Below are positions 1,255-62,594 of a stretch of 64,000 nucleotides of DNA, one piece after another (within the stretch, counting starts at the first letter, position 1; every line of letters starts with the position of its first letter). A program made the translations under genes and the position numbers. The notes under the pieces were generated by a model. The model ran no database searches. It worked only from the letters and a program-made list of their open reading frames with translations, and had not been told where the DNA came from. Source of the DNA: Eledone cirrhosa (Eukaryota). The DNA lies in the NCBI GenBank assembly GCA_964016885.1, contig OZ024744.1, forward strand, positions 125,798,001 to 125,862,000, given 5' to 3'.

Positions 1255-2090
1255 TTCTCGACGGCTAGCCGCATTTCGTGATCCGCCTTTCGATTGCGCT
1301 TCCGTCGCGGCAAAAGAATTGCCTTTCCAGACCGCCGTCGCCCGACCGGACCCATGATAGAAGACGTTCGTTACCGTTGGAGCAACGCAAATTACTCCTC
1401 GGTTGACGCCAAAAACGAACGCCTTCCCGCCTCGCGCCGCCTTCTCCTCGCCGACCCTCGGCCTCGACGATTAGCCACTTTCCGTCACAGCAGTAGATAC
1501 GCGTCCGTCGTAATAGCCGTCATTTTAACGCAGGAGAAACGCCTAATTGCCCTGCACCGCGTTTGACGGCGATCTACGACGGCGACGATGCGCGCACTCT
1601 TCCTTGCTGCGACGAAGGTTTCGGCTTTTCGTCGTGGACCCGGTCAGGTCATGCCGCTGACCTCGCGTTACGGCGACGCGAGAAGACGTTCGTTACCGCT
1701 GGAGCAACGCAAATTACTCCTCGGTTGACGCCAAAAACGAACGCCTCGCGCCGCCGCTTCCTCCTCGGCCTCGACGATTAGCCGCTTTCCGTCACAGCAG
1801 TAGATACGCGTCCATCGTAATAGCCGTCATTTTAACGCAGGAGAAACGCCTTGACGACGATATACGACGGGTCGACGACGCGCGCACTCTTTCTGCTGCG
1901 ACGAAGGTTTTGGCTTTTCGTTGTGGACCCGGTCGGGTCATGCCTCTGACCTCGCGTTGCGTCGCCACCGCCGCGGCGGGCTTGGGTTTAGCCGTAGCTA
2001 CCCTCGTTTTGCCAACGGCGACGCGAGAAGACGTTCGTTACCGCTGGAGCAACGCAAATTACTCCTCGGATGAGGCCAAAAACGAACGCT
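1255..2090 (+). repeat. Orphan, rearranged copy of the rDNA spacer/ETS-like sequence (no 18S follows)
   Basis: Shares the 169-bp repeat and ETS-like segments with 8234-9517; the ETS-like piece is duplicated. Confidence 0.85.
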
Positions 2091-2168
2091 GAAGAGATAT
2101 TGTCCATGGATATCGGGAATTTTACCCGCCCTAGATAGATAGATAGATAGGGATGTATGTATGTATGT

Positions 2169-8010: not shown

Positions 8011-8143
8011 GCAAAGGCACAACACACAACAGAAGAAAAGAACAATGACAATTATTATTATTATTATTATTATTATTATTTGTTTTATTAGTTTTATTAT
8101 AATAAAAATTGTGCTGTTAGTTTGCTTGCTATACCATCATGTA

Positions 8144-8236
8144 CCCTAACCCTAAACCTAACCCCAACTCCAACTCTGACCCTAAACCTAACCCCAACCC
8201 CAACCCCAACCCTAACCCTAACCCTAACCCTAACCC
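8144..8236. repeat. Interstitial telomeric tract (CCCTAA)n with variants
   Basis: Perfect CCCTAA units next to the spacer repeat, degenerate units further left. Confidence 0.9.
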
Positions 8237-9160
8237 ACGATAGAAGACGTTCGTTACCGCTGGAGCAACGCAAATTACTCCTCGGTTGACGCCAAAAACG
8301 AACGCCTTCTCGACGGCTAGCCGCATTTCGTGATCCGCCTTTCGATTGCGCTTCCGTCGCGGAAAAAGAATTGCCTTTATAGGCCGCCGCCGCCCGACCG
8401 GACCCACGATAGAAGACGTTCGTTACCGCTGGAGCAACGCAAATTACTCCTCGGTTGACGCCAAAAACGAACGCCTTCTCGACGGCTAGCCGCATTTCGT
8501 GATCCGCCTTTCGATTGCGCTTCCGTCGCGGAAAAAGAATTGCCTTTATAGGCCGCCGCCGCCGCCCGACCGGACCCACGATAGAAGACGTTCGTTACCG
8601 CTGGAGCAACGCAAATTACTCCTCGGTTGACGCCAAAAACGAACGCCTTCTCGACGGCTAGCCGCATTTCGTGATCCGCCTTTCGATTGCGCTTCCGTCG
8701 CGGAAAAAGAATTGCCTTTATAGGCCGCCGCCGCCCGACCGGACCCACGATAGAAGACGTTCGTTACCGCTGGAGCAACGCAAATTACTCCTCGGTTGAC
8801 GCCAAAAACGAACGCCTTCTCGACGGCTAGCCGCATTTCGTGATCCGCCTTTCGATTGCGCTTCCGTCGCGGAAAAAGAATTGCCTTTATAGGCCGCCGC
8901 CGCCCGACCGGACCCACGATAGAAGACGTTCGTTACCGCTGGAGCAACGCAAATTACTCCTCGGTTGACGCCAAAAACGAACGCCTTCTCGACGGCTAGC
9001 CGCATTTCGTGATCCGCCTTTCGATTGCGCTTCCGTCGCGGAAAAAGAATTGCCTTTATAGGCCGCCGCCGCCGCCCGACCGGACCCACGATAGAAGACG
9101 TTCGTTACCGCTGGAGCAACGCAAATTACTCCTCGGTTGACGCCAAAAACGAACGCCTTC
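8234..9160 (+). repeat. 169/172-bp tandem repeats (5 plus a partial), putative rDNA IGS subrepeats or spacer promoters
   Basis: Units start at 8234, 8403, 8575, 8744, 8913, 9085; they differ by one GCC; each full unit contains CTTTATAGG; array lies upstream of the 18S 5' end. Confidence 0.85.
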
Positions 9161-9517
9161 CGGTTCGGGCGACGTAAAAGTCTGTAGCCTTTTCGCCGAT
9201 CCTCGACGATTATCCGCCTTCCGAACAACCGCCTTTCCGCCGTCACAGCAGTAGGTACTCGTCCGTCGTAATAGCCGTCATTTTAATGCAGGAGAAACGC
9301 CTAAATGCACTGCGATTGACGACGATCTACGACGCGCTTACTCTTCCTTGCTGCGACGAAGGTTTCGTTCGGCTTTTCGTCGTGGACCCGGTCAGGTCAT
9401 GCCGCTGATCTCGCGTTGCGTCGTTACCGCTGGAGCAACGCAAATTACTCCTCGTTTAACGCCAACATCGAACGCGCTTCGGTTCTCGGTCGTCGTTGTT
9501 TTGTTTCGTGCGGAAGA
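9161..9517 (+). other. 5' ETS-like CpG-rich segment
   Basis: Lies between the spacer repeats and the 18S start; assignment is positional. Confidence 0.55.
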
Positions 9518-9702
9518 TACCTGGGTGATCCTGCCAGTAGTCATATGCTTGTCTCAAAGCTTAAGCCATGCAAGTGGAAGTTCATGCCGTAAACGAAAAT
9601 GGTGAAACCGCGAATGGCTCAGGAACCGGATCTAATCCTCGGGACCGTATTCCTCACCGCGAGGAGAGGATAACTGTGGCAATTCTAGAGCTAATACATG
9701 CA
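9518..9702 (+). pseudogene. 18S rRNA 5' fragment (pseudogene)
   Basis: TACCTGGGTGATCCTGCCAGTAGTCATATGCTTGTCTCAAAG...GGATAACTGTGGCAATTCTAGAGCTAATACATGC is the eukaryotic SSU 5' end, then truncated. Confidence 0.93.
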
Positions 9703-9706
9703 ATTG

Positions 9707-12700
9707 AGATCGGAGAGGGAGCGATCCGTCTGCTTGATTCCGATAACGAACGAGACATTCGTATCCGAAAGAACGTTTGTCTGGAAACTGGTGCAGTCAG
9801 TGAGTCGAAAAAAAAATATCTCGGTGGTAGTAGCAAATATTCGAACGAGACATTCGTATGCGAAAGAACGTTTGTCGGTGGTAGTAGCAAATATTCGAAC
9901 GAGACATTCGTATGCGAAAGAACGTTTGTCTGGAAGTGGCGATCCATGCCCGGTGGATAGTTGGTTCCGGGTTTTACTATGATTGTTGCAAAACAGAAAC
10001 TTAAAGGGATTGACAGAATTTGCGATTCCGGAGAGAGGGCGATCCGTCTGCTTGATTCCGATAACGAACGAGACATTCGTATCCGAAAGAACGTTTGTCT
10101 GGAAACTGGTGAGTCAGTGAGTCGAAAAAAAAATATCTCGGTGGTAGTAGCAAATATTCGTATGCGAAAGAAAAGATCTCGGTGGTAGTAGCAAATATTC
10201 GAACGAGACATTCGTAGGCGAAAGAACGTTTGTCGGTGGTAGTAGCAAATATTCGAACGAGACATTCGTATGCGAAAGAACGTTTGTCGGTGGTAGTAGC
10301 AAATATTCGAACGAGACATTCGTATGCGAAAGAACGTTTGTCTGGAAGTGGCGATCCATGCCCGGTGGATAGTTGGTTCCGGGTTTTACTATGATTGTTG
10401 CAAAACAGAAACTTAAAGGGATTGACAGAATTTGCGATTACGGAGAGGGGGCGATCCGTCTGCTTGATTCCGATAACGAACGAGACATTCGTATCCGAAA
10501 GAACGTTTGTCTGGAAACTGGTGAGTCAGTGAGTCGAAAAAAAAAATATCTCGGTGGTAGTAGCAAATATTCGAACGAGACATTAGTATGCGAAAGAACG
10601 TTTGTCGGTGGTAGTAGCAAATATTCGAACGAGACATTCGTATGCGAAAGAACGTTTGTCGGTGGTAGTAGCAAATATTCGAACGAGACATTCGTATCCG
10701 AAAGAACGTTTGTCTGGAAACTGGTGAGTCAGTGAGTCGAAAAAAAAAATATCTCGGTGGTAGTAGCAAATATTCGAACGAGACATTCGTATGCGAAAGA
10801 ACGTTTGTCGGTGGTAGTAGCAAATATTCGAACGAGACATTCGTATGCGAAAGAACGTTTGTCTGGAAGTGGCGATCCATGCCCGGTGGATAGTTGGTTC
10901 CGGGTTTTACTATGATTGTTGCAAAACAGAAACTTAAAGGGATTGACAGAATTTGCGATTCCGGAGAGGGGGCGATCCGTCTGCTTGATTCCGATAACGA
11001 ACGAGACATTCGTATCCGAAAGAACGTTTGTCTGGAAACTGGTGAGTCAGTGAGTCGAAAAAAAAATATCTCGGTGGTAGTAGCAAATATTCGAACGAGA
11101 CATTCGTATGCGAAAGAACGTTTGTCGGTGGTAGTAGCAAATATTCGAACGAGACATTCGTATGCGAAAGAACGTTTGTCTGGAAGTGGCGATCCATGCC
11201 CGGTGGATAGTTGGTTCCGGGTTTTACTATGATTGTTGCAAAACAGAAACTTAAAGGGATTGACAGAATTTGCGATTACGGAGAGGGGGCGATCCGTCTG
11301 CTTGATTCCGATAACGAACGAGACATTCGTATCCGAAAGAACGTTTGTCTGGGAACTGGTGAGTCAGTGAGTCGAAAAAAAAATATCTCGGTGGTAGTAG
11401 CAAATATTCGTATGCGAAAGAAAAGATCTCGGTGGTAGTAGCAAATATTCGAACGAGACATTCGTAGGCGAAAGAAAAATATCTCGGTGGTAGTAGCAAA
11501 TATTCGAACGAGACATTCGTATTCGAAAGAACGTTTGTCTGGAAGTTGCGATCCATGCCCGGTGGATAGTTGGTTCCGGGTTTTACTATGATTGTTGCAA
11601 AACAGAAACTTAAAGGGATTGACAGAATTTGCGATTCCGGAGAGGGGGCGATCCGTCTGCTTGATTCCGATAACGAACGAGACATTCGTATCCGAAAGAA
11701 CGTTTGTCTGGAAACTGGTGAGTCAGTGAGTCGAAAAAAAAAATATCTCGGTGGTAGTAGCAAATATTCGAACGAGACATTCGTATGCGAAAGAACGTTT
11801 GTCGGTGGTAGTAGCAAATATTCGAACGAGACATTCGTATGCGAAAGAACGTTTGTCGGTGGTAGTAGCAAATATTCGAACGAGACATTCGTATTCGAAA
11901 GAACGTTTGTCTGGAAGTGGCGATCCATGCCCGGTGGATAGTTGGTTCCGGGCTTTACTATGATTGTTGCAAAACAGAAACTTAAAGGGATTGACAGAAT
12001 TTGCGATTCCGGAGAGGGGGCGATCCGTCTGCTTGATTTCGATAACGAACGAGACATTCGTATCCGAAAGAACGTTTGTCTGGAAACTGGTGAGTCAGTG
12101 AGTCGAAAAAAAAAATATCTCGGTGGTAGTAGCAAATATTCGAACGAGACATTCGTATGCGAAAGAACGTTTGTCGGTGGTAGTAGCAAATATTCGAACG
12201 AGACATTCGTATGCGAAAGAACGTTTGTCGGTGGTAGTAGCAAATATTCGAACGAGACATTCGTATGCGAAAGAACGTTTGTCTGGAAGTGGCGATCCAT
12301 GCCCGGTGGATAGTTGGTTCCGGGTTTTACTATGATTGTTGCAAAACAGAAACTTAAAGGGATTGACAGAATTTGCGATTCCGGAGAGAGGGCGATCCGT
12401 CTGCTTGATTCCGATAACGAACGAGACATTCGTATCCGAAAGAACGTTTGTCTGGAAACTGGTGAGTCAGTGAGTCGAAAAAAAAATATCTCGGTGGTAG
12501 TAGCAAATATTCGTATGCGAAAGAAAAGATCTCGGTGGTAGTAGCAAATATTCGAACGAGACATTCGTATGCGAAAGAAAAATATCTCGGTGGTAGTAGC
12601 AAATATTCGAACGAGACATTCGTATTCGAAAGAACGTTTGTCTGGAAGTGGCGATCCATGCCCGGTGGATAGTTGGTTCCGGGTTTTACTATGATTGTTG

Positions 12701-15700
12701 CAAAACAGAAACTTAAAAGGATTGACAGAATTTGCGATTCCGGAGAGAGGGCGATCCGTCTGCTTGATTCCGATAACGAACGAGACATTCGTATCCGAAA
12801 GAACGTTTGTCTGGAAACTGGTGCAGTCAGTGAGTCGAAAAAAAAATATCTCGGTGGTAGTAGCAAATATTCGAACGAGACATTCGTATGCGAAAGAACG
12901 TTTGTCGGTGGTAGTAGCAAATATTCGAACGAGACATTCGTATGCGAAAGAACGTTTGTCTGGAAGTGGCGATCCATGCTCGGTGGATAGTTGGTTCCGG
13001 GTTTTACTATGATTGTTGCAAAACAGAAACTTAAAGGGATTGACAGAATTTGCGATTCCGGAGAGGGGGCGATCCGTCTGCTTGATTCCGATAACGAACG
13101 AGACATTCGTATCCGAAAGAACGTTTGTCTGGAAACTGGTGAGTCAGTGAGTCGAAAAAAAAATATCTCGGTGGTAGTAGCAAATATTCGAACGAGACAT
13201 TCGTATGCGAAAGAACGTTTGTCGGTGGTAGTAGCAAATATTCGAACGAGACATTCGTATGCGAAAGAACGTTTGTCTGGAAGTGGCGATCCATGCCCGG
13301 TGGATAGTTGGTTCCGGGTTTTACTATGATTGTTGCAAAACAGAAACTTAAAGGGATTGACAGAATTTGCGATTCCGGAGAGGGGGCGATCCGTCTGCTT
13401 GATTCCGATAACGAACGAGACATTCGTATCCGAAAGAACGTTTGTCTGGAAACTGGTGAGTCAGTGAGTCGAAAAAAAAATATCTCGGTGGTAGTAGCAA
13501 ATATTCGAACGAGACATTCGTATGCGAAAGAACGTTTGTCGGTGGTAGTAGCAAATATTCGAACGAGACATTCGTATGCGAAAGAACGTTTGTCTGGAAG
13601 TGGCGATCCATGCTCGGTGGATAGTTGGTTCCGGGTTTTACTATGATTGTTGCAAAACAGAAACTTAAAGGGATTGACAGAATTTGCGATTCCGGAGAGG
13701 GGGCGATCCGTCTGCTTGATTCCGATAACGAACGAGACATTCGTATCCGAAAGAACGTTTGTCTGGAAACTGGTGAGTCAGTGAGTCGAAAAAAAAATAT
13801 CTCGGTGGTAGTAGCAAATATTCGAACGAGACATTCGTATGCGAAAGAACGTTTGTCGGTGGTAGTAGCAAATATTCGAACGAGACATTCGTATGCGAAA
13901 GAACGTTTGTCTGGAAGTGGCGATCCATGCCCGGTGGATAGTTGGTTCCGGGTTTTACTATGATTGTTGCAAAACAGAAACTTAAAGGGATTGACAGAAT
14001 TTGCGATTCCGGAGAGGGGGCGATCCGTCTGCTTGATTCCGATAACGAACGAGACATTCGTATCCGAAAGAACGTTTGTCTGGAAACTGGTGAGTCAGTG
14101 AGTCGAAAAAAAAATATCTCGGTGGTAGTAGCAAATATTCGAACGAGACATTCGTATGCGAAAGAACGTTTGTCGGTGGTAGTAGCAAATATTCGAACGA
14201 GACATTCGTATGCGAAAGAACGTTTGTCTGGAAGTGGCGATCCATGCCCGGTGGATAGTTGGTTCCGGGTTTTACTATGATTGTTGCAAAACAGAAACTT
14301 AAAGGGATTGACAGAATTTGCGATTCCGGAGAGGGGGCGATCCGTCTGCTTGATTCCGATAACGAACGAGACATTCGTATCCGAAAGAACGTTTGTCTGG
14401 AAACTGGTGAGTCAGTGAGTCGAAAAAAAAATATCTCGGTGGTAGTAGCAAATATTCGAACGAGACATTCGTATGCGAAAGAACGTTTGTCGGTGGTAGT
14501 AGCAAATATTCGAACGAGACATTCGTATGCGAAAGAACGTTTGTCTGGAAGTGGCGATCCATGCCCGGTGGATAGTTGGTTCCGGGTTTTACTATGATTG
14601 TTGCAAAACAGAAACTTAAAGGGATTGACAGAATTTGCGATTCCGGAGAGGGGGCGATCCGTCTGCTTGATTCCGATAACGAACGAGACATTCGTATCCG
14701 AAAGAACGTTTGTCTGGAAACTGGTGAGTCAGTGAGTCGAAAAAAAAATATCTCGGTGGTAGTAGCAAATATTCGAACGAGACATTCGTATGCGAAAGAA
14801 CGTTTGTCGGTGGTAGTAGCAAATATTCGAACGAGACATTCGTATGCGAAAGAACGTTTGTCTGGAAGTGGCGATCCATGCCCGGTGGATAGTTGGTTCC
14901 GGGTTTTACTATGATTGTTGCAAAACAGAAACTTAAAGGGATTGACAGAATTTGCGATTACGGAGAGGGGGCGATCCGTCTGCTTGATTCCGATAACGAA
15001 CGAGACATTCGTATCCGAAAGAACGTTTGTCTGGAAACTGGTGAGTCAGTGAGTCGAAAAAAAAATATCTCGGTGGTAGTAGCAAATATTCGTATGCGAA
15101 AGAAAAGATCTCGGTGGTAGTAGCAAATATTCGAACGAGACATTCGTAGGCGAAAGAAAAATATCTCGGTGGTAGTAGCAAATATTCGAACGAGACATTC
15201 GTATTCGAAAGAACGTTTGTCTGGAAGTTGCGATCCATGCCCGGTGGATAGTTGGTTCCGGGTTTTACTATGATTGTTGCAAAACAGAAACTTAAAGGGA
15301 TTGACAGAATTTGCGATTCCGGAGAGGGGGCGATCCGTCTGCTTGATTCCGATAACGAACGAGACATTCGTATCCGAAAGAACGTTTGTCTGGAAACTGG
15401 TGAGTCAGTGAGTCGAAAAAAAAAATATCTCGGTGGTAGTAGCAAATATTCGAACGAGACATTCGTATGCGAAAGAACGTTTGTCGGTGGTAGTAGCAAA
15501 TATTCGAACGAGACATTCGTATGCGAAAGAACGTTTGTCGGTGGTAGTAGCAAATATTCGAACGAGACATTCGTATTCGAAAGAACGTTTGTCTGGAAGT
15601 GGCGATCCATGCCCGGTGGATAGTTGGTTCCGGGCTTTACTATGATTGTTGCAAAACAGAAACTTAAAGGGATTGACAGAATTTGCGATTCCGGAGTAGG

Positions 15701-16413
15701 GGGCGATCCGTCTGCTTGATTTCGATAACGAACGAGACATTCGTATCCGAAAGAACGTTTGTCTGGAAACTGGTGAGTCAGTGAGTCGAAAAAAAAAATA
15801 TCTCGGTGGTAGTAGCAAATATTCGAACGAGACATTCGTATGCGAAAGAACGTTTGTCGGTGGTAGTAGCAAATATTCGAACGAGACATTCGTATGCGAA
15901 AGAACGTTTGTCGGTGGTAGTAGCAAATATTCGAACGAGACATTCGTATGCGAAAGAACGTTTGTCTGGAAGTGGCGATCCATGCCCGGTGGATAGTTGG
16001 TTCCGGGTTTTACTATGATTGTTGCAAAACAGAAACTTAAAGGGATTGACAGAATTTGCGATTCCGGAGAGAGGGCGATCCGTCTGCTTGATTCCGATAA
16101 CGAACGAGACATTCGTATCCGAAAGAACGTTTGTCTGGAAACTGGTGAGTCAGTGAGTCGAAAAAAAAATATCTCGGTGGTAGTAGCAAATATTCGTATG
16201 CGAAAGAAAAGATCTCGGTGGTAGTAGCAAATATTCGAACGAGACATTCGTATGCGAAAGAAAAATATCTCGGTGGTAGTAGCAAATATTCGAACGAGAC
16301 ATTCGTATTCGAAAGAACGTTTGTCTGGAAGTTGCGATCCATGCCCGGTGGATAGTTGGTTCCGGGCTTTACTATGATTGTTGCAAAACAGAAACTTAAA
16401 GGAATTGACAGAA
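9707..16413 (+). repeat. rRNA-derived satellite, ~19 units of 317-521 bp with internal 54-bp subrepeats
   Basis: Units contain 18S motifs (GATTCCGGAGAGGG; TTCCGATAACGAACGAGAC; GTTGCAAA..GAAACTTAAAGG.ATTGAC) and a 28S motif (GGTGGTAGTAGCAAATATTC). Confidence 0.92.
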
Positions 16414-16443
16414 TTTTCGAATCGACATCAACTCGGCTACGGC

Positions 16444-16788
16444 TATCCCGTCGAGTACGAGAGTATCGCGGGATCAGAGCAACGGTTTGCTAGGCTGCCT
16501 CTGAGCGATAACGGCTGAACGCCTCCTCTAAGCCGGAACCCTAGCCGGACCCGAGTTGTTTTTCGACAAGCGTCTCGACCTTCTTAAGGCCCATGCCTTA
16601 GTTTGGCGATTGCCGTCCGTTCGCCGACGGCGGCAGCGTCAGCGGAAATGCCATTCTGTGACGACTACGACGATTCGTCGTCGTCGTCGTCCATTCGATT
16701 TCCTGAAAGAGATAGAGACTAAAGTGATCAAATTGTTCGGAGTTACGTGCTTAGTAGAGCAGCTACCACACTGCAATCTATTGAGAGT
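16444..16788 (+). pseudogene. 28S rRNA 3' fragment (pseudogene)
   Basis: AGTACGAGAG (sarcin-ricin loop), CTGAACGCCTC..TAAG and GTAGAGCAGCT..CTGCAATCTATTGA terminal motifs in the correct order. Confidence 0.85.
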
Positions 16789-17150
16789 TTTCTGACGAAC
16801 GATACAATCCGCCCACGTGGCGCCAGAAAGGGAGAAGAAAAGAAAAGTTAGACGCCGCCGATCGATCGGTTCGTTGTTTTACGTGTACACAGCTTGTGTG
16901 TGTGTCTGTATGTGATACAAGCCGCCTATCCGTCTTCCAAGTAAGTTTTGTGTGTAGACTGCGGAAAGAAATCCAATCCGCCGTCTAGGCGGTTCTGCCG
17001 CCGACCCATACTTTTGCGAGTCGCTCCCGGGAAAGACAGGCGGCAAGACGGCGTGTATACACGACGCCTTCCGTCTTCCGCCTCGAACCCGGGCAAACGT
17101 TCCTTTATTCGTCCACGCCTTCCCGCTTCGATCGCGAGAAAGTAATCAAT
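16789..17150 (+). other. 3' ETS-like CpG-rich segment
   Basis: Immediately downstream of the 28S end; positional inference. Confidence 0.4.
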
Positions 17151-17666
17151 CTGTTTTGTGTGTGTGTCTGTGTGTGATACAAATTTGTTTTCTTAATTTG
17201 ATAACCATGAATTGTTTCAACACCGGCCCTTTTAAGGGCCACTTATATTTTCAATAATCAGTTTAAATGGGTTGCACCGTAGCCACTTGGTAATACACTG
17301 CAAATCTCCCGTCAATCTATGAAGGTTTTGTAGTAGATTAGATCAAAACACAATCAGCAAGACAGTAATGGAATGAATAATATAAACATTTGTTTATAAT
17401 TAAAGCCTTAAGATGTCCCTCCCTCCCTCCCTTCCTCCCTTCCTTCCTTCCTTCCTTCCTTCCTTACGATATACACTTTAATAACATTGAAACTTATTTA
17501 ATAAGTTTAAATTTTAAACACTTTTTATTCAGACGTACCGCGATAAGTAACTAGATATGTTCTAACGAATAATCCGCGATGTGGCGAGGATTACCGCGAT
17601 AGGAAATTAGATACGTTCCAAAGAAATATCCGCGAAAAGTGAACCGCGATATAGCGGGTTCACCAG

Positions 17667-18221: not shown

Positions 18222-18452
18222 TAAGTTAAGTTGGGGCTAAGTTAAGTTGGGGCTAAGTTAAGTTGAGGTTAAGTTGAGTTGGGGTTAAGTTAAGTGGGGG
18301 TTAAGTTAAGCTGGGGTTAAGTTAAGTTGAGGTTAAGTTAAGTTGGGGTTAAGTCAAGTTGGGGTTAAGTTAAGTTGGGGTTAAGTTAGGTTGGGGTTAA
18401 GTTAGGTTGGGGTTAAGTTAAGTTGGGGTTAAGTTAGGTTGCGGTTAAGTTA
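18222..18452. repeat. Telomere-like 16-bp repeat (TTAAGTTAAGTTGGGG)n, G-rich on + strand
   Basis: ~14 units read directly from sequence. Confidence 0.88.
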
Positions 18453-18454
18453 CA

Positions 18455-24060: not shown

Positions 24061-24149
24061 GACGACGGACAGAGTATTCGGTTTATTTTCTTGACATATT
24101 TCTTTACATATTGTCCAGGCATGCACTTTTTCCATGATTAGTTCTGTTG

Positions 24150-27240: not shown

Positions 27241-27293
27241 AGTGGTTGTCGGGTAAACGTTAAGACCCTCTGATATACATATATATATATATA

Positions 27294-27579: not shown

Positions 27580-27619
27580 AGTAATCATTACAGAGTGTAC
27601 TGGGTGTATTTTAGTGGGC

Positions 27620-42071: not shown

Positions 42072-42127
42072 TTTGTACCCTGCTCGCAGTCTATGATGGT
42101 GTGTAGAGGGTGGCAGGTTGTTCTGGT

Positions 42128-52516: not shown

Positions 52517-52609
52517 CCCTAACCCTAAACCTAACCCCAACTCCAACTCTGACCCTAAACCTAACCCCAACCCCAACCCCAACCCTAACCCTAACCCTAA
52601 CCCTAACCC
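52517..52609. repeat. (CCCTAA)n tract, copy 2
   Basis: Matches 8144-8236. Confidence 0.9.
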
Positions 52610-53533
52610 ACGATAGAAGACGTTCGTTACCGCTGGAGCAACGCAAATTACTCCTCGGTTGACGCCAAAAACGAACGCCTTCTCGACGGCTAGCCGCATT
52701 TCGTGATCCGCCTTTCGATTGCGCTTCCGTCGCGGAAAAAGAATTGCCTTTATAGGCCGCCGCCGCCCGACCGGACCCACGATAGAAGACGTTCGTTACC
52801 GCTGGAGCAACGCAAATTACTCCTCGGTTGACGCCAAAAACGAACGCCTTCTCGACGGCTAGCCGCATTTCGTGATCCGCCTTTCGATTGCGCTTCCGTC
52901 GCGGAAAAAGAATTGCCTTTATAGGCCGCCGCCGCCGCCCGACCGGACCCACGATAGAAGACGTTCGTTACCGCTGGAGCAACGCAAATTACTCCTCGGT
53001 TGACGCCAAAAACGAACGCCTTCTCGACGGCTAGCCGCATTTCGTGATCCGCCTTTCGATTGCGCTTCCGTCGCGGAAAAAGAATTGCCTTTATAGGCCG
53101 CCGCCGCCCGACCGGACCCACGATAGAAGACGTTCGTTACCGCTGGAGCAACGCAAATTACTCCTCGGTTGACGCCAAAAACGAACGCCTTCTCGACGGC
53201 TAGCCGCATTTCGTGATCCGCCTTTCGATTGCGCTTCCGTCGCGGAAAAAGAATTGCCTTTATAGGCCGCCGCCGCCCGACCGGACCCACGATAGAAGAC
53301 GTTCGTTACCGCTGGAGCAACGCAAATTACTCCTCGGTTGACGCCAAAAACGAACGCCTTCTCGACGGCTAGCCGCATTTCGTGATCCGCCTTTCGATTG
53401 CGCTTCCGTCGCGGAAAAAGAATTGCCTTTATAGGCCGCCGCCGCCGCCCGACCGGACCCACGATAGAAGACGTTCGTTACCGCTGGAGCAACGCAAATT
53501 ACTCCTCGGTTGACGCCAAAAACGAACGCCTTC
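52607..53533 (+). repeat. 169/172-bp spacer-like repeats, copy 2
   Basis: Matches 8234-9160. Confidence 0.85.
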
Positions 53534-53890
53534 CGGTTCGGGCGACGTAAAAGTCTGTAGCCTTTTCGCCGATCCTCGACGATTATCCGCCTTCCGAACA
53601 ACCGCCTTTCCGCCGTCACAGCAGTAGGTACTCGTCCGTCGTAATAGCCGTCATTTTAATGCAGGAGAAACGCCTAAATGCACTGCGATTGACGACGATC
53701 TACGACGCGCTTACTCTTCCTTGCTGCGACGAAGGTTTCGTTCGGCTTTTCGTCGTGGACCCGGTCAGGTCATGCCGCTGATCTCGCGTTGCGTCGTTAC
53801 CGCTGGAGCAACGCAAATTACTCCTCGTTTAACGCCAACATCGAACGCGCTTCGGTTCTCGGTCGTCGTTGTTTTGTTTCGTGCGGAAGA

Positions 53891-54075
53891 TACCTGGGTG
53901 ATCCTGCCAGTAGTCATATGCTTGTCTCAAAGCTTAAGCCATGCAAGTGGAAGTTCATGCCGTAAACGAAAATGGTGAAACCGCGAATGGCTCAGGAACC
54001 GGATCTAATCCTCGGGACCGTATTCCTCACCGCGAGGAGAGGATAACTGTGGCAATTCTAGAGCTAATACATGCA
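53891..54075 (+). pseudogene. 18S rRNA 5' fragment, copy 2
   Basis: Matches 9518-9702. Confidence 0.93.
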
Positions 54076-54079
54076 ATTG

Positions 54080-57000
54080 AGATCGGAGAGGGAGCGATCC
54101 GTCTGCTTGATTCCGATAACGAACGAGACATTCGTATCCGAAAGAACGTTTGTCTGGAAACTGGTGCAGTCAGTGAGTCGAAAAAAAAATATCTCGGTGG
54201 TAGTAGCAAATATTCGAACGAGACATTCGTATGCGAAAGAACGTTTGTCGGTGGTAGTAGCAAATATTCGAACGAGACATTCGTATGCGAAAGAACGTTT
54301 GTCTGGAAGTGGCGATCCATGCCCGGTGGATAGTTGGTTCCGGGTTTTACTATGATTGTTGCAAAACAGAAACTTAAAGGGATTGACAGAATTTGCGATT
54401 CCGGAGAGAGGGCGATCCGTCTGCTTGATTCCGATAACGAACGAGACATTCGTATCCGAAAGAACGTTTGTCTGGAAACTGGTGAGTCAGTGAGTCGAAA
54501 AAAAAATATCTCGGTGGTAGTAGCAAATATTCGTATGCGAAAGAAAAGATCTCGGTGGTAGTAGCAAATATTCGAACGAGACATTCGTAGGCGAAAGAAC
54601 GTTTGTCGGTGGTAGTAGCAAATATTCGAACGAGACATTCGTATGCGAAAGAACGTTTGTCGGTGGTAGTAGCAAATATTCGAACGAGACATTCGTATGC
54701 GAAAGAACGTTTGTCTGGAAGTGGCGATCCATGCCCGGTGGATAGTTGGTTCCGGGTTTTACTATGATTGTTGCAAAACAGAAACTTAAAGGGATTGACA
54801 GAATTTGCGATTACGGAGAGGGGGCGATCCGTCTGCTTGATTCCGATAACGAACGAGACATTCGTATCCGAAAGAACGTTTGTCTGGAAACTGGTGAGTC
54901 AGTGAGTCGAAAAAAAAAATATCTCGGTGGTAGTAGCAAATATTCGAACGAGACATTAGTATGCGAAAGAACGTTTGTCGGTGGTAGTAGCAAATATTCG
55001 AACGAGACATTCGTATGCGAAAGAACGTTTGTCGGTGGTAGTAGCAAATATTCGAACGAGACATTCGTATCCGAAAGAACGTTTGTCTGGAAACTGGTGA
55101 GTCAGTGAGTCGAAAAAAAAAATATCTCGGTGGTAGTAGCAAATATTCGAACGAGACATTCGTATGCGAAAGAACGTTTGTCGGTGGTAGTAGCAAATAT
55201 TCGAACGAGACATTCGTATGCGAAAGAACGTTTGTCTGGAAGTGGCGATCCATGCCCGGTGGATAGTTGGTTCCGGGTTTTACTATGATTGTTGCAAAAC
55301 AGAAACTTAAAGGGATTGACAGAATTTGCGATTCCGGAGAGGGGGCGATCCGTCTGCTTGATTCCGATAACGAACGAGACATTCGTATCCGAAAGAACGT
55401 TTGTCTGGAAACTGGTGAGTCAGTGAGTCGAAAAAAAAATATCTCGGTGGTAGTAGCAAATATTCGAACGAGACATTCGTATGCGAAAGAACGTTTGTCG
55501 GTGGTAGTAGCAAATATTCGAACGAGACATTCGTATGCGAAAGAACGTTTGTCTGGAAGTGGCGATCCATGCCCGGTGGATAGTTGGTTCCGGGTTTTAC
55601 TATGATTGTTGCAAAACAGAAACTTAAAGGGATTGACAGAATTTGCGATTACGGAGAGGGGGCGATCCGTCTGCTTGATTCCGATAACGAACGAGACATT
55701 CGTATCCGAAAGAACGTTTGTCTGGGAACTGGTGAGTCAGTGAGTCGAAAAAAAAATATCTCGGTGGTAGTAGCAAATATTCGTATGCGAAAGAAAAGAT
55801 CTCGGTGGTAGTAGCAAATATTCGAACGAGACATTCGTAGGCGAAAGAAAAATATCTCGGTGGTAGTAGCAAATATTCGAACGAGACATTCGTATTCGAA
55901 AGAACGTTTGTCTGGAAGTTGCGATCCATGCCCGGTGGATAGTTGGTTCCGGGTTTTACTATGATTGTTGCAAAACAGAAACTTAAAGGGATTGACAGAA
56001 TTTGCGATTCCGGAGAGGGGGCGATCCGTCTGCTTGATTCCGATAACGAACGAGACATTCGTATCCGAAAGAACGTTTGTCTGGAAACTGGTGAGTCAGT
56101 GAGTCGAAAAAAAAAATATCTCGGTGGTAGTAGCAAATATTCGAACGAGACATTCGTATGCGAAAGAACGTTTGTCGGTGGTAGTAGCAAATATTCGAAC
56201 GAGACATTCGTATGCGAAAGAACGTTTGTCGGTGGTAGTAGCAAATATTCGAACGAGACATTCGTATTCGAAAGAACGTTTGTCTGGAAGTGGCGATCCA
56301 TGCCCGGTGGATAGTTGGTTCCGGGCTTTACTATGATTGTTGCAAAACAGAAACTTAAAGGGATTGACAGAATTTGCGATTCCGGAGAGGGGGCGATCCG
56401 TCTGCTTGATTTCGATAACGAACGAGACATTCGTATCCGAAAGAACGTTTGTCTGGAAACTGGTGAGTCAGTGAGTCGAAAAAAAAAATATCTCGGTGGT
56501 AGTAGCAAATATTCGAACGAGACATTCGTATGCGAAAGAACGTTTGTCGGTGGTAGTAGCAAATATTCGAACGAGACATTCGTATGCGAAAGAACGTTTG
56601 TCGGTGGTAGTAGCAAATATTCGAACGAGACATTCGTATGCGAAAGAACGTTTGTCTGGAAGTGGCGATCCATGCCCGGTGGATAGTTGGTTCCGGGTTT
56701 TACTATGATTGTTGCAAAACAGAAACTTAAAGGGATTGACAGAATTTGCGATTCCGGAGAGAGGGCGATCCGTCTGCTTGATTCCGATAACGAACGAGAC
56801 ATTCGTATCCGAAAGAACGTTTGTCTGGAAACTGGTGAGTCAGTGAGTCGAAAAAAAAATATCTCGGTGGTAGTAGCAAATATTCGTATGCGAAAGAAAA
56901 GATCTCGGTGGTAGTAGCAAATATTCGAACGAGACATTCGTATGCGAAAGAAAAATATCTCGGTGGTAGTAGCAAATATTCGAACGAGACATTCGTATTC

Positions 57001-60000
57001 GAAAGAACGTTTGTCTGGAAGTGGCGATCCATGCCCGGTGGATAGTTGGTTCCGGGTTTTACTATGATTGTTGCAAAACAGAAACTTAAAAGGATTGACA
57101 GAATTTGCGATTCCGGAGAGAGGGCGATCCGTCTGCTTGATTCCGATAACGAACGAGACATTCGTATCCGAAAGAACGTTTGTCTGGAAACTGGTGCAGT
57201 CAGTGAGTCGAAAAAAAAATATCTCGGTGGTAGTAGCAAATATTCGAACGAGACATTCGTATGCGAAAGAACGTTTGTCGGTGGTAGTAGCAAATATTCG
57301 AACGAGACATTCGTATGCGAAAGAACGTTTGTCTGGAAGTGGCGATCCATGCTCGGTGGATAGTTGGTTCCGGGTTTTACTATGATTGTTGCAAAACAGA
57401 AACTTAAAGGGATTGACAGAATTTGCGATTCCGGAGAGGGGGCGATCCGTCTGCTTGATTCCGATAACGAACGAGACATTCGTATCCGAAAGAACGTTTG
57501 TCTGGAAACTGGTGAGTCAGTGAGTCGAAAAAAAAATATCTCGGTGGTAGTAGCAAATATTCGAACGAGACATTCGTATGCGAAAGAACGTTTGTCGGTG
57601 GTAGTAGCAAATATTCGAACGAGACATTCGTATGCGAAAGAACGTTTGTCTGGAAGTGGCGATCCATGCCCGGTGGATAGTTGGTTCCGGGTTTTACTAT
57701 GATTGTTGCAAAACAGAAACTTAAAGGGATTGACAGAATTTGCGATTCCGGAGAGGGGGCGATCCGTCTGCTTGATTCCGATAACGAACGAGACATTCGT
57801 ATCCGAAAGAACGTTTGTCTGGAAACTGGTGAGTCAGTGAGTCGAAAAAAAAATATCTCGGTGGTAGTAGCAAATATTCGAACGAGACATTCGTATGCGA
57901 AAGAACGTTTGTCGGTGGTAGTAGCAAATATTCGAACGAGACATTCGTATGCGAAAGAACGTTTGTCTGGAAGTGGCGATCCATGCTCGGTGGATAGTTG
58001 GTTCCGGGTTTTACTATGATTGTTGCAAAACAGAAACTTAAAGGGATTGACAGAATTTGCGATTCCGGAGAGGGGGCGATCCGTCTGCTTGATTCCGATA
58101 ACGAACGAGACATTCGTATCCGAAAGAACGTTTGTCTGGAAACTGGTGAGTCAGTGAGTCGAAAAAAAAATATCTCGGTGGTAGTAGCAAATATTCGAAC
58201 GAGACATTCGTATGCGAAAGAACGTTTGTCGGTGGTAGTAGCAAATATTCGAACGAGACATTCGTATGCGAAAGAACGTTTGTCTGGAAGTGGCGATCCA
58301 TGCCCGGTGGATAGTTGGTTCCGGGTTTTACTATGATTGTTGCAAAACAGAAACTTAAAGGGATTGACAGAATTTGCGATTCCGGAGAGGGGGCGATCCG
58401 TCTGCTTGATTCCGATAACGAACGAGACATTCGTATCCGAAAGAACGTTTGTCTGGAAACTGGTGAGTCAGTGAGTCGAAAAAAAAATATCTCGGTGGTA
58501 GTAGCAAATATTCGAACGAGACATTCGTATGCGAAAGAACGTTTGTCGGTGGTAGTAGCAAATATTCGAACGAGACATTCGTATGCGAAAGAACGTTTGT
58601 CTGGAAGTGGCGATCCATGCCCGGTGGATAGTTGGTTCCGGGTTTTACTATGATTGTTGCAAAACAGAAACTTAAAGGGATTGACAGAATTTGCGATTCC
58701 GGAGAGGGGGCGATCCGTCTGCTTGATTCCGATAACGAACGAGACATTCGTATCCGAAAGAACGTTTGTCTGGAAACTGGTGAGTCAGTGAGTCGAAAAA
58801 AAAATATCTCGGTGGTAGTAGCAAATATTCGAACGAGACATTCGTATGCGAAAGAACGTTTGTCGGTGGTAGTAGCAAATATTCGAACGAGACATTCGTA
58901 TGCGAAAGAACGTTTGTCTGGAAGTGGCGATCCATGCCCGGTGGATAGTTGGTTCCGGGTTTTACTATGATTGTTGCAAAACAGAAACTTAAAGGGATTG
59001 ACAGAATTTGCGATTCCGGAGAGGGGGCGATCCGTCTGCTTGATTCCGATAACGAACGAGACATTCGTATCCGAAAGAACGTTTGTCTGGAAACTGGTGA
59101 GTCAGTGAGTCGAAAAAAAAATATCTCGGTGGTAGTAGCAAATATTCGAACGAGACATTCGTATGCGAAAGAACGTTTGTCGGTGGTAGTAGCAAATATT
59201 CGAACGAGACATTCGTATGCGAAAGAACGTTTGTCTGGAAGTGGCGATCCATGCCCGGTGGATAGTTGGTTCCGGGTTTTACTATGATTGTTGCAAAACA
59301 GAAACTTAAAGGGATTGACAGAATTTGCGATTACGGAGAGGGGGCGATCCGTCTGCTTGATTCCGATAACGAACGAGACATTCGTATCCGAAAGAACGTT
59401 TGTCTGGAAACTGGTGAGTCAGTGAGTCGAAAAAAAAATATCTCGGTGGTAGTAGCAAATATTCGTATGCGAAAGAAAAGATCTCGGTGGTAGTAGCAAA
59501 TATTCGAACGAGACATTCGTAGGCGAAAGAAAAATATCTCGGTGGTAGTAGCAAATATTCGAACGAGACATTCGTATTCGAAAGAACGTTTGTCTGGAAG
59601 TTGCGATCCATGCCCGGTGGATAGTTGGTTCCGGGTTTTACTATGATTGTTGCAAAACAGAAACTTAAAGGGATTGACAGAATTTGCGATTCCGGAGAGG
59701 GGGCGATCCGTCTGCTTGATTCCGATAACGAACGAGACATTCGTATCCGAAAGAACGTTTGTCTGGAAACTGGTGAGTCAGTGAGTCGAAAAAAAAAATA
59801 TCTCGGTGGTAGTAGCAAATATTCGAACGAGACATTCGTATGCGAAAGAACGTTTGTCGGTGGTAGTAGCAAATATTCGAACGAGACATTCGTATGCGAA
59901 AGAACGTTTGTCGGTGGTAGTAGCAAATATTCGAACGAGACATTCGTATTCGAAAGAACGTTTGTCTGGAAGTGGCGATCCATGCCCGGTGGATAGTTGG

Positions 60001-60786
60001 TTCCGGGCTTTACTATGATTGTTGCAAAACAGAAACTTAAAGGGATTGACAGAATTTGCGATTCCGGAGTAGGGGGCGATCCGTCTGCTTGATTTCGATA
60101 ACGAACGAGACATTCGTATCCGAAAGAACGTTTGTCTGGAAACTGGTGAGTCAGTGAGTCGAAAAAAAAAATATCTCGGTGGTAGTAGCAAATATTCGAA
60201 CGAGACATTCGTATGCGAAAGAACGTTTGTCGGTGGTAGTAGCAAATATTCGAACGAGACATTCGTATGCGAAAGAACGTTTGTCGGTGGTAGTAGCAAA
60301 TATTCGAACGAGACATTCGTATGCGAAAGAACGTTTGTCTGGAAGTGGCGATCCATGCCCGGTGGATAGTTGGTTCCGGGTTTTACTATGATTGTTGCAA
60401 AACAGAAACTTAAAGGGATTGACAGAATTTGCGATTCCGGAGAGAGGGCGATCCGTCTGCTTGATTCCGATAACGAACGAGACATTCGTATCCGAAAGAA
60501 CGTTTGTCTGGAAACTGGTGAGTCAGTGAGTCGAAAAAAAAATATCTCGGTGGTAGTAGCAAATATTCGTATGCGAAAGAAAAGATCTCGGTGGTAGTAG
60601 CAAATATTCGAACGAGACATTCGTATGCGAAAGAAAAATATCTCGGTGGTAGTAGCAAATATTCGAACGAGACATTCGTATTCGAAAGAACGTTTGTCTG
60701 GAAGTTGCGATCCATGCCCGGTGGATAGTTGGTTCCGGGCTTTACTATGATTGTTGCAAAACAGAAACTTAAAGGAATTGACAGAA
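54080..60786 (+). repeat. rRNA-derived satellite, copy 2
   Basis: Same unit order and variants as 9707-16413. Confidence 0.92.
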
Positions 60787-60816
60787 TTTTCGAATCGACA
60801 TCAACTCGGCTACGGC

Positions 60817-61161
60817 TATCCCGTCGAGTACGAGAGTATCGCGGGATCAGAGCAACGGTTTGCTAGGCTGCCTCTGAGCGATAACGGCTGAACGCCTCCT
60901 CTAAGCCGGAACCCTAGCCGGACCCGAGTTGTTTTTCGACAAGCGTCTCGACCTTCTTAAGGCCCATGCCTTAGTTTGGCGATTGCCGTCCGTTCGCCGA
61001 CGGCGGCAGCGTCAGCGGAAATGCCATTCTGTGACGACTACGACGATTCGTCGTCGTCGTCGTCCATTCGATTTCCTGAAAGAGATAGAGACTAAAGTGA
61101 TCAAATTGTTCGGAGTTACGTGCTTAGTAGAGCAGCTACCACACTGCAATCTATTGAGAGT
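60817..61161 (+). pseudogene. 28S rRNA 3' fragment, copy 2
   Basis: Matches 16444-16788. Confidence 0.85.
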
Positions 61162-62594
61162 TTTCTGACGAACGATACAATCCGCCCACGTGGCGCCAGA
61201 AAGGGAGAAGAAAAGAAAAGTTAGACGCCGCCGATCGATCGGTTCGTTGTTTTACGTGTACACAGCTTGTGTGTGTGTCTGTATGTGATACAAGCCGCCT
61301 ATCCGTCTTCCAAGTAAGTTTTGTGTGTAGACTGCGGAAAGAAATCCAATCCGCCGTCTAGGCGGTTCTGCCGCCGACCCATACTTTTGCGAGTCGCTCC
61401 CGGGAAAGACAGGCGGCAAGACGGCGTGTATACACGACGCCTTCCGTCTTCCGCCTCGAACCCGGGCAAACGTTCCTTTATTCGTCCACGCCTTCCCGCT
61501 TCGATCGCGAGAAAGTAATCAATCTGTTTTGTGTGTGTGTCTGTGTGTGATACAAATTTGTTTTCTTAATTTGATAACCATGAATTGTTTCAACACCGGC
61601 CCTTTTAAGGGCCACTTATATTTTCAATAATCAGTTTAAATGGGTTGCACCGTAGCCACTTGGTAATACACTGCAAATCTCCCGTCAATCTATGAAGGTT
61701 TTGTAGTAGATTAGATCAAAACACAATCAGCAAGACAGTAATGGAATGAATAATATAAACATTTGTTTATAATTAAAGCCTTAAGATGTCCCTCCCTCCC
61801 TCCCTTCCTCCCTTCCTTCCTTCCTTCCTTCCTTCCTTACGATATACACTTTAATAACATTGAAACTTATTTAATAAGTTTAAATTTTAAACACTTTTTA
61901 TTCAGACGTACCGCGATAAGTAACTAGATATGTTCTAACGAATAATCCGCGATGTGGCGAGGATTACCGCGATAGGAAATTAGATACGTTCCAAAGAAAT
62001 ATCCGCGAAAAGTGAACCGCGATATAGCGGGTTCACCAGCCAGTGTATTACTGGTACTTTATTTTATCGACCCCCATAAGGATGAAAGGCAAAGTTAACT
62101 GTGCAATAACAAAGGGAGATAACCTCGTCTTTTTTTTTTTACGGAGTTATTTCCCTTTAAATTTTATCTATTACTTATGATGATACAATTTAATCAGTTC
62201 TTAGCTGTCGAGACACTGCATCCTTTAAAACCTCCATGGAACAAGCTACCTGCAACAGTTGTTAGCTGTCGAGACACTGCATCTTTTAAAACCTCCATGG
62301 AACAAACTACCTGCATCAGTTGTTAGGGTCTGAGTTCAAATCACGCCGAGGAGGTTAACTTTGCCTTTCATCCTTACGGGGTCGGTCGGAAAACGAACCA
62401 TTCCCGGTTCGCTTTCGAAGCGGGTTTCCGAAAACAGCGCTTCTCTCGACCGGGCCCGTCGTCCGCTCGGCGGTGGTTTTCATCGTCCCAGGCACGGCTA
62501 ACAGGCGGAGACGGGACAAACGCGCGTGTTCCTTTTTTTATCAGCCGCAGCGCCGTTCGTATATATGCTTAGGTTGTTTTTTTTTTAAATATCC

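Follow-up and report, generated by a model that had tools for sequence, protein, structure and literature searches.

The window analysed here, a 64,000-nt stretch of Eledone cirrhosa DNA, holds the remains of a ribosomal RNA gene unit whose interior has been lost and replaced by a tandem satellite, itself built from short scraps of 18S, ITS1, and 28S sequence. Every part of this cassette is homologous to rDNA; its monomers are mosaics, its parts have decayed, the length of its array varies among copies, and it recurs within a tandem macrosatellite. On the sequence evidence, we estimate at roughly two chances in three that the cassette is an internally collapsed rDNA pseudogene that formed by microhomology-guided template switching and was then amplified as a passenger, and it is probably inert.

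Structure and divergence of the cassette

Comparison with the genome's own intact rDNA confirmed that the cassette in the window is real, with all of its parts on the + strand in canonical rDNA order (Table 1). The initial annotation had described an 18S 5′ end at 9518 followed by 6.7 kb of satellite in this order and on this strand, all of which is borne out; it had also made its reading depend on homology of the flanks to real rDNA, and the flanks do match the genome's own ETS and IGS. The 28S 3′ end is likewise present, with the terminal ~460-490 nt of the gene kept from 16425 to ~16812 (end set by Rfam LSU), and the end first placed at 16788 is about 25 nt early. The 169-bp repeats (3-8 units in other copies of the cassette), originally taken for spacer, come from inside the 5′ ETS, because their source in intact units starts ~180 nt and ends ~600 nt after a promoter-like motif. 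The ETS next to 18S has lost about 835 nt, and the IGS-derived piece of the cassette ends ~300 nt before the spacer promoter-like motif.

Table 1 Features of the cassette in the window, and sources of the pieces that make up the satellite monomer
Feature	Position	Strand	Description
Telomere-like (CCCTAA)n tract	8143..8236		Adjoins cassette 5′ end; 4 perfect units at 8210-8233
5.5 x 169-bp repeats	8233..9160	+	From 5′ ETS; 93-97% identity to intact rDNA
Rearranged 5′ ETS remnant	9161..9517	+	~4% substitutions; joined to final 44 nt of ETS
18S rRNA nt 1-191	9518..9708	+	Homology to intact 18S
Mosaic satellite	9711..16424	+	Tandem array; 19 monomers, 6.7 kb
28S rRNA 3′ end and few downstream bases	16425..16845	+	~8% substitutions; three deletions of 15-33 nt
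IGS-derived piece	16896..17150	+	Source ~2 kb downstream of 28S; ~9% substitutions
Second whole cassette	52606..61523	+	In next 44,373-bp macrosatellite unit; 99.98% identical to first
Monomer piece	18S nt 575-592	sense	17/18 match
Monomer piece	18S nt 2042-2080	sense	38/39 match
Monomer piece	ITS1 +288	sense	19/19 match; in every monomer
Monomer piece	28S nt 2084-2127	sense	42/44 match
Monomer piece	28S nt 1395-1416	sense	20/21 match
Monomer piece	18S nt 1843-1900	sense	51/58 match

The 5.8S gene (0/159 nt), ITS2 (0/621 nt), and the 18S 3′ end are absent from the cassette, as had been stated at the outset; ITS1, which had been counted among the missing parts, survives as an exact 19-nt piece in each monomer. 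The whole 44-kb repeat unit covers 288/2877 nt of 18S, 0/159 nt of 5.8S, and 707/5108 nt of 28S, and an Rfam scan of the window returned no rRNA family above cut-off. Both rRNA ends carry substitutions and deletions, and positions 9474-9708 differ from five reference units by 3.4-3.9% substitutions and two 2-nt indels. Parts of the cassette are 3-9% diverged from these five units (12% in one comparison), the units differ by 0-4% among themselves, and by this comparison the cassette is not homogenised with intact repeats. The substitution spectrum is flat, with six A>G versus four T>C and nine CpG transitions among 58 changes, and these changes carry no RNA-editing signature.

A satellite monomer assembled from rDNA fragments

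The monomer comprises a 263-bp core and 54-bp subrepeats, with an overall length of 263-370 bp and most commonly 317 bp. It is a sense-strand mosaic of six pieces of 18-58 nt from 18S, ITS1, and 28S, all of which originate within the deleted 9-kb interval and which together are identical to intact rRNA at 187/199 positions; a linker of ~40 nt had no assignment to rDNA above shuffled controls. Exact words of at least 11 nt in common with the intact unit cover 189 of the 317 monomer bases, whereas 500 shuffles averaged 4.7 bases and reached 43 at most; antisense matches cover 13. The earlier description of a body replaced by a satellite therefore holds for the tandem array, but the replacement is not foreign, since the monomer is itself rDNA-derived. 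The broader proposal, of an rDNA unit that fell in on itself and then grew again as a repeat, is upheld, the repeat being made of the deleted interior's own scraps. All 11 arrays consist of head-to-tail monomers (4-39 monomers, 1.3-13.4 kb) and differ in length and module order; array length is unconstrained.

An 18S piece and a 28S piece have a 10-nt word in common in intact rDNA, and sharing of this length was found in 19 of 4000 random window pairs. In the window array, each of the 65 occurrences of the word leads into one and the same ITS1-derived piece, an arrangement that differs from both intact contexts. Pairwise shared words among the pieces gave P 0.04, and microhomology summed over seven junctions was not significant (P 0.10). 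We propose that a single rDNA unit, lying apart from the homogenised arrays, suffered a break past 18S nt 191, and that a repair polymerase would have copied 18-58-nt tracts of the deleted interval, changing template where these had short words in common and using its own product as template again, before rejoining ~490 nt ahead of the 28S end. The resulting direct repeats could have allowed slippage and unequal exchange, with growth of the 54-bp subrepeat, the monomer (to 4-39 per cassette), and the ETS repeat. The cassette, together with adjoining transposon debris and other satellites, may then have been multiplied as a 28-53-kb unit to at least 59 copies.

The uniform sense orientation of the pieces also fits copying from pre-rRNA. 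A reverse transcriptase, for example of the R2 type, could have jumped between pre-rRNA fragments and produced a cDNA mosaic that replaced the rDNA interior, with an inert outcome. All six pieces, the ITS1 piece included, map inside the pre-rRNA, and enzymes of this sort have acted in the genome, since an insert occupies the R2 site in 3/4 of the intact units scanned and the macrosatellite unit contains a LINE ORF. The cassette, however, holds IGS DNA from ~2 kb past 28S, has neither junction at the R2 site, and shows no A>G bias. It differs from a pre-rRNA retrocopy by its IGS piece, and its substitutions bear no mark of an RNA intermediate. We give reverse-transcriptase jumping roughly one chance in three as the origin alone, and consider it very unlikely to be the best account in full.

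Five of the six pieces come from the conserved rRNA core, a source shared by 36% of windows drawn at random (P 0.005 for the mean and 0.025 for the count, both post hoc and for pieces that are not independent), and purine richness of the pieces gave P 0.04. Accessibility and low GC were rejected as causes of piece choice (P 0.33, 0.60, and 0.10), the first two values being those for predicted single-strandedness as RNA and as DNA, which does not account for the pieces chosen. An overlap of the pieces with rRNA modification sites or universal primer sites would be expected of any conserved segment, and it was given no weight.

The bias towards the core would be expected if the array had been co-opted as an RNA source, with Pol II or read-through transcription, not Pol I, yielding either antisense small RNAs that match conserved 18S/28S sites and ITS1 and help to silence or cull defective rDNA units, or sense-repeat decoys for rRNA-binding factors. 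The remaining identity of the pieces to intact rRNA and the abundance of the monomer (997 matches in the assembly, or ~1000) point the same way; a target class exists because inserts at the R2 site are present in many of the assembled rDNA units, and in Drosophila piRNAs have been described that control aberrant rDNA via R2 sequence (10.1101/2025.04.30.651568). However, the pieces (~94% identical to rRNA) are no closer to their source than the decayed flanks are (91-97%), and in comparisons of 182-440 module copies the linker and the rRNA-matching stretches both contain variant sites. Small RNAs matching the core would also be unable to tell good rDNA units from bad. The monomer also gave no folding signal (z -0.61), on which ground a folded RNA function was rejected. 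We regard a co-opted RNA source as unlikely. Protein coding was likewise set aside, as ORFs of the satellite are broken between monomers and differ by frame.

Absence of the promoter-like motif

All four reference units scanned have a promoter-like motif 2.15 kb ahead of 18S as well as in every ~710-bp IGS repeat. Motifs like it occur at rDNA start sites and spacer promoters of arthropods (PMC2590618), and its putative promoter role is assigned by position and by this resemblance. Neither the window nor any of 11 other array stretches (which take in cassettes and their flanks rather than entire units) contains the motif, and C28 and C18 have none of the 14 exact matches to it in the genome. 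Of the 201 nt around the motif, 33 are matched in the cassette, only via IGS-type sequence at the cassette 3′ end. The cassette thus appears to be without the likely Pol I promoter and start region, and Pol I would make no transcript resembling pre-rRNA from it; such RNA as it gave would stem from incidental read-through.

These results bear on the suggestion in the initial annotation of a Pol I transcription unit that keeps its promoter, ETS, and processing signals and gives a repetitive non-coding RNA of pre-rRNA size. Of the 10 other cassettes measured, 9 do keep both rRNA termini and part of the ETS in sequence (the exception, on C18, is without the 28S end), but the start region is absent along with the promoter-like motif, the ETS is largely deleted, and the termini are mutated. 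The distance from 18S start to 28S end, 7.27 kb here, initially given as about 7.3 kb and likened to a normal pre-rRNA coding span, matches by coincidence: it ranges eightfold, from 1.8 to 13.9 kb, in the nine other cassettes that have both ends, and measures 9.3 kb in uninserted and 10.5 kb in inserted intact units. Because the span varies among copies, the argument from length fails. A functional 45S unit would have a promoter and start upstream of its 5′ ETS, complete 18S, 5.8S, and 28S genes, and homogenisation with the intact repeats, none of which applies to the cassette, and we consider transcription of this kind highly improbable. An Rfam Histone3 match at 17220-17264 was also considered as a Pol II 3′ end and rejected; this hairpin is the end of a dispersed repeat, because the genome contains 694 exact matches to it, frequently arranged as inverted pairs.

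Copy number and macrosatellite context

A second copy 44,373 bp downstream of the first demonstrates that the cassette is not a single locus. Exact junction matches number 59 in the assembly, 43 of them spread over ~1.8 Mb of one chromosome (C28), and cassettes occur on C28, C18, and five small contigs, embedded in a macrosatellite with a unit of mostly 28-53 kb. No exact monomer match was found on C1-C17 or C19-C27 among the matches listed, and full-length 18S matches lay on C2, C4, C12, and C25 among the 11 of 2291 candidates that were scored. The cassettes are thus outside the intact arrays, and, as expected of rDNA pseudogenes, they are recognisably related to the rDNA of the species yet disabled by lesions. 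All 40 copies scored for each flank are 100% identical, from which we infer that decay preceded amplification.

CpG observed/expected is ~1.8 in the cassette versus 0.2-0.3 in its flanks. The C28 array is accordingly CpG-rich as well as megabase-sized and without the promoter-like motif, features that would suit a natural pseudo-NOR, in which a promoterless and untranscribed array of ~1.8 Mb is loaded with UBF or other HMG-box proteins and Pol I factors through its ETS repeats and CpG-rich DNA. The missing promoter does not count against this, because pseudo-NORs are promoterless by definition (PMC3923965). The amplified part is nevertheless not the genuine IGS enhancer or spacer-promoter repeats, and rDNA-derived DNA makes up only about one-fifth of the 44-kb unit in the window, where two further rDNA scraps, a LINE, and satellites of unrelated sequence are found as well. 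A genome search with PF14887 (UBF) was blank and, having had no positive control, is uninformative. We judge a natural pseudo-NOR to be a distinctly unlikely explanation.

Evidence from sequencing runs

Contigs from 4 of 24 runs were compared with the window, over 9200-10030 only. None of the 24 is listed as an RNA run, which speaks neither for nor against expression. In run X1, which may be the assembled individual, contigs bridge the cassette-specific ETS junction as well as the one between 18S and satellite, and the junction of satellite and 28S is seen at a loose end. Cassette-specific contigs in this run have depths of 3728 and 3867 versus 4350 and 5343 for intact rDNA (a ratio of 0.7-0.9, depth being a rough guide). 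An assembly artefact could be suspected from the 99.98% identity of the two copies in the window and from the possible identity of X1 with the assembled individual; against this stand the bridged junctions and the differences in length and module order among the 11 arrays, and we regard an artefact as almost inconceivable.

Run X14, which has the same organism code and comes from another sample, is RNA-like by inference (18S depth 3903, ETS-18S junction 212) and contains a monomer contig at depth 114, for which DNA carry-over accounts equally well as transcription. No cassette-specific junction contig was among the X14 contigs shown, in a procedure that drops rare branches during contig building. 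Satellite words occur in 20 rows from 17 studies. In the two other organisms compared (X4 and X5) the monomer is found at a depth of ~3-7 with 0-2 differences per piece, and there is no matching cover of the species' 18S beyond a short conserved stretch; orthology was set aside in this case, as the pattern looks like cross-contamination by a very high-copy repeat.

Several observations weigh against collapse, template switching, and passenger amplification as the full account: the bias towards core pieces, their uniform sense orientation, the non-significant summed microhomology, the CpG-richness, and the large load in X1 for junk. Another reading, which we think improbable, is a natural locus of rRNA mimicry, in which an array of megabase size and with an abundance close to that of real rDNA strings together conserved 18S/28S motifs and an ITS1 word and is transcribed or chromatin-loaded. 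Were it true, the locus might supply antisense small RNAs against rDNA, act as a sponge for rRNA-binding factors, or form an endogenous pseudo-NOR, and the conserved-core bias would reflect selection rather than accident. Junction-specific RNA or UBF/Pol I binding, if found, would make the array a natural test of decoy and pseudo-NOR models that have so far been synthetic.

Relation to known systems

Read as a collapsed and amplified pseudogene, the cassette would be a clear fossil of the birth of a satellite monomer, in which a short templated-insertion chain arose inside a collapsing rDNA unit and in which donor sites, re-used microhomology, and edge copies are still legible against the intact gene. 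In practice, rDNA FISH, rRNA read mapping, and estimates of rDNA copy number in this species will also be skewed by the ~1000 monomers with conserved rRNA motifs. A full-text search, whose coverage leaves out most subscription journals, found no paper on a satellite of scrambled 18S, ITS1, and 28S scraps; the accessible part of PMC13321053 makes no mention of rDNA repeats or pseudogenes, and that of PMC5035012 gives no target sequence for comparison.

With its head-to-tail monomers, variable number, and rDNA origin, the array is an rDNA-derived satellite. As in the tomato satellite described in PMC2679016, a degenerate rDNA unit lost its coding part and an internal repeat was amplified; the tomato monomer is a single IGS subrepeat, whereas here a new mosaic of 18S, ITS1, and 28S pieces lies between rRNA ends within a 28-53-kb macrosatellite. 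Like the degraded and displaced human rDNA pseudogenes (PMC5381670), the cassettes are rDNA-derived, outside functional arrays, and decaying, but the human copies are dispersed and eroding, whereas here one rearrangement was amplified and homogenised to at least 59 near-identical copies. SINE28 and Pokey (PMC10946416) similarly multiply rRNA-gene or spacer pieces outside their normal context, and unlike them the cassette is tandem and clustered rather than dispersed. Synthetic pseudo-NORs, which PMC3923965 describes as promoterless, non-transcribed 1.4-Mb arrays of UBF sites, share with the C28 array the megabase scale, the relation to rDNA, and the lack of a promoter; they differ in consisting purely of enhancer repeats, and their defining features are the binding of UBF and the hallmarks of a mitotic NOR. 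Lastly, the monomer resembles TST jumps and MMBIR-type chains, for which PMC7347108 reports short tandem pieces from a local 1-10-kb region at a junction, with sparse microhomology. The six tandem pieces here likewise come from one local deleted region, but they measure 18-58 nt, shorter than the TST medians of 150-199 bp, and unlike TST jumps the chain is fixed in the germline, is entirely rDNA in one orientation, and became the monomer of a satellite.

Intact rDNA units and the derivation of the cassette

Full-length 18S genes (2.87 kb) were found on chromosomes C2, C4, C12, and C25 of the assembly (11 matches scored of 2291 candidates), and one unit on C12 carries 18S, 5.8S, and 28S as identified by Rfam, with 10.5 kb from the 18S start to the 28S end. 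The R2 site of the 28S is interrupted in this unit and in units on C25 and C4, and an insert of ~1.24 kb occupies it in two units, including that on C12 (L022:6970-8210). An uninterrupted R2 site had just one exact match across the assembly, so the functional rDNA array is probably collapsed there. The unit with this uninterrupted site, measuring 9.3 kb between the 18S start and the 28S end, served as our main reference.

A motif containing TATATAGGG is present in every ~710-bp IGS repeat, with an additional copy 2.15 kb upstream of the 18S. It resembles the arthropod rDNA start-site and spacer-promoter motifs in an excerpt of PMC2590618, and this likeness, together with its position, suggests that it is likely the Pol I start. 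None of the 14 exact genomic matches to this promoter-like motif lies on C28, which holds the window, or on C18; scans of the window and of 11 further array stretches did not find it either. The rDNA units that bear it are scattered over C1, C2, C4, C12, and C25, singly or in short runs, and differ by up to about 3-4% overall.

The 169-bp repeats that open the cassette (8233-9160), together with the DNA up to 9480, match the intact unit ~180-1340 nt downstream of the promoter-like motif; the repeats thus represent 5′ ETS rather than spacer, to which the initial annotation had likened them. The cassette lacks about 835 nt of the ETS next to the 18S and retains 18S nt 1-191; the 28S 3′ end picks up at 16425, and the IGS piece, taken from ~2 kb beyond the 28S, comes to an end some 300 nt ahead of a spacer motif. 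Relative to five reference units, which differ among themselves by 0-4%, divergence is 3-6% in the 5′ parts of the cassette and 8-9% in its 3′ parts, with one comparison at 12%; the 28S end also carries deletions of 15-33 nt. The 58 changes at positions where reference copies agree include C>T (9), G>A (7), A>G (6), and T>C (4), a spectrum typical of plain DNA decay and free of any editing bias, and the cassette stays CpG-rich. The cassette does not qualify as a functional Pol I unit in the tests applied, contrary to the Pol I-transcribed reading proposed earlier.

The macrosatellite array

The window (C28:125,798,001-125,862,000) comes from a 3.0-Gb animal genome whose 18S length and repeat content resemble those of octopuses. 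It takes in a repeat unit of 44,373 bp plus 19.6 kb of its successor, at 99.98% identity. Searching the assembly for an exact 30-nt word across the 18S-satellite junction gave 59 matches, of which 43 are on C28, 15 on five small contigs, and one on C18. Spacing on C28 is mostly 28-53 kb but reaches 71-91 kb in three gaps, and the array there has its left edge near 124.69 Mb and extends beyond 126.47 Mb. Both cassette flanks are 100% identical in all scored copies (40/40 for the 5′ flank, 40/40 for the 3′ flank). The C18 copy (6,712,001-6,742,000; stretches L031-L033) is rearranged, with its 28S end truncated at window-equivalent 16736, where a part of the unit from further upstream is attached.

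Features of the macrosatellite unit and pieces of the satellite monomer (in monomer order)
Feature	Position	Strand	Description
Rearranged 5′ ETS repeats	window 1254-2089		extra rDNA scrap; diverged 2-7%
Telomere-like tracts	window 8143-8236; others 1220-1240, 42676-42986, 18222-18452		adjoining rDNA scraps
Hairpin	window 17220-17264 and 61593-61637		above Rfam Histone3 cut-off
28S expansion-segment piece	window 18017-18222		extra rDNA scrap; diverged 1.5-3%
~196-bp satellite	window 18453-24061		CpG-rich; 1.6-1.8-kb higher-order units with long palindromes
LINE debris	window 24968-36124		three near-identical 3.7-4.1-kb tandem blocks; nested duplication level inside unit
LINE	window 39306-42179	-	open 957-aa frame with endonuclease (PF03372) and reverse transcriptase (PF00078) domains
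Piece 1	18S nt 575-592
Piece 2	18S nt 2042-2080
Piece 3			ITS1 word, 19 nt, exact; recurs after piece 4
Linker			between first ITS1 word and piece 4; no source assigned
Piece 4	28S nt 2084-2127		with following ITS1 word forms 54-bp subrepeat, 1-7 times
Piece 5	28S nt 1395-1416		after 54-bp subrepeat
Piece 6	18S nt 1843-1900		last in monomer

The ~196-bp satellite had no match in Rfam or Pfam. Exact matches to the Histone3-like hairpin number 694 across the genome, frequently in inverted pairs whose members lie 0.2-2.5 kb apart. A likely identity is the terminal repeat of some dispersed DNA element, which mimics or has captured the histone 3′ stem-loop. The (CCCTAA)n tract enters the cassette in register with its first CCC, much as if a telomere had been added to a broken end, and the 28S scrap is followed by an array of G-rich 16-mers. 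The adjacency of telomere-like tracts to rDNA scraps may be due to chance, since similar tracts are present elsewhere in the unit.

Mosaic structure and proposed origin of the satellite

The window's array has 19 monomers and the 11 arrays parsed have 4-39; the 997 monomer matches genome-wide correspond to about 17 per cassette. From 18S start to 28S end the cassette measures 7.27 kb in the window and 1.8-13.9 kb in 9/10 other cassettes measured, the tenth, on C18, lacking a 28S end. Given this variation and the span of the intact unit, the resemblance of ~7.3 kb to a normal pre-rRNA, remarked on in the initial annotation, is a matter of chance.

Each of the six pieces outscored its shuffles, the shortest only in the typical monomer (31 versus a shuffle maximum of 28; 26 versus 25 in the first variant tried); two more candidate pieces and the linker gave no clear pass against shuffles and were omitted from piece statistics. 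Exact words of at least 11 nt from the intact unit cover 189/317 monomer bases in the sense orientation, versus 13 in antisense (shuffles: mean 4.7, maximum 43).

In intact rDNA a 10-nt word is common to the 28S piece and to the 18S piece whose last base is nt 2080; 19/4000 random window pairs share as much. The same ITS1-derived sequence follows this word in 65/65 occurrences in the window's array, and at neither intact site. In the simplest reading, a polymerase that had copied the 28S piece would have re-annealed via this word to the junction already made. Words common to the six pieces modestly exceed random sets (P 0.04; 0.013 versus core-only sets), and summed junction microhomology showed no excess over random sets (P 0.10). 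Among described processes the closest is that in an excerpt of PMC7347108, where replication template switching is held responsible for chains of short templated insertions, although the pieces in that case measure about 200 bp. Serial deletion on its own is an unlikely source, because each deletion would have had to begin within tens of bases of the previous one and three joins run backwards. Alternatively, a reverse transcriptase may have jumped over pre-rRNA, as the sense orientation of all pieces would suggest, but neither the IGS piece in the cassette nor the flat substitution spectrum favours this. Slippage and unequal exchange would have expanded the 54-bp subrepeat, the monomer, the ETS repeat, and the whole unit, given that copy number varies at each level and that the last monomer is constant in 11/11 arrays.

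Function or inert debris

The concern that the cassette might be an assembly artefact is allayed by contigs of sequencing run X1 (possibly the assembled individual), which span its junctions. X1 looks like DNA from its even ETS-to-18S depth. Depth is 3728 and 3867 in cassette-specific contigs and 4350 and 5343 in intact-type contigs, a rough ratio of 0.7-0.9 from this single run. Conservation at each position was also scored, using 109 metagenomic stretches of eukaryotic rDNA; 5/6 pieces lie in windows at least half conserved, versus 36% of random windows (P 0.005 for the mean and 0.025 for the count; post hoc, n = 6), and predicted unpairedness does not account for this bias. The bias, the persistent CpG richness, and the X1 depth count against an inert reading. 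In its favour, variants accumulate within the rRNA-matching pieces, monomer folding is nothing unusual, and the unit's further load of two rDNA scraps, a LINE, and other satellites is what amplified debris would be expected to show. A near-exact monomer (window 9711-10027) also occurs at low depth in X4 and X5, runs labelled as other organisms, probably through cross-contamination by a high-copy repeat. On this sequence evidence the cassette is a real, unusual structure that probably lacks a function, and a functional rRNA-mimic role for the array appears unlikely.

Comparison with known systems

The cassette has the tested attributes of an rDNA pseudogene and of an rDNA-derived satellite, apart from the make-up of its monomer. 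As far as the excerpted accounts go, it resembles the tomato satellite (PMC2679016) in that an rDNA pseudogene seeded a satellite, and human degraded rDNA (PMC5381670) in being rDNA-pseudogene-like; unlike in either case, its monomer is mosaic and derived from coding and ITS sequence. It shares with the pseudo-NOR definition, as excerpted from PMC3923965, just the half describing a promoterless megabase array. None of the titles and abstract openings listed by literature searches reports such an rDNA mosaic and, judged by its composition, the cassette satellite is an rDNA-derived satellite of a variant, mosaic form.
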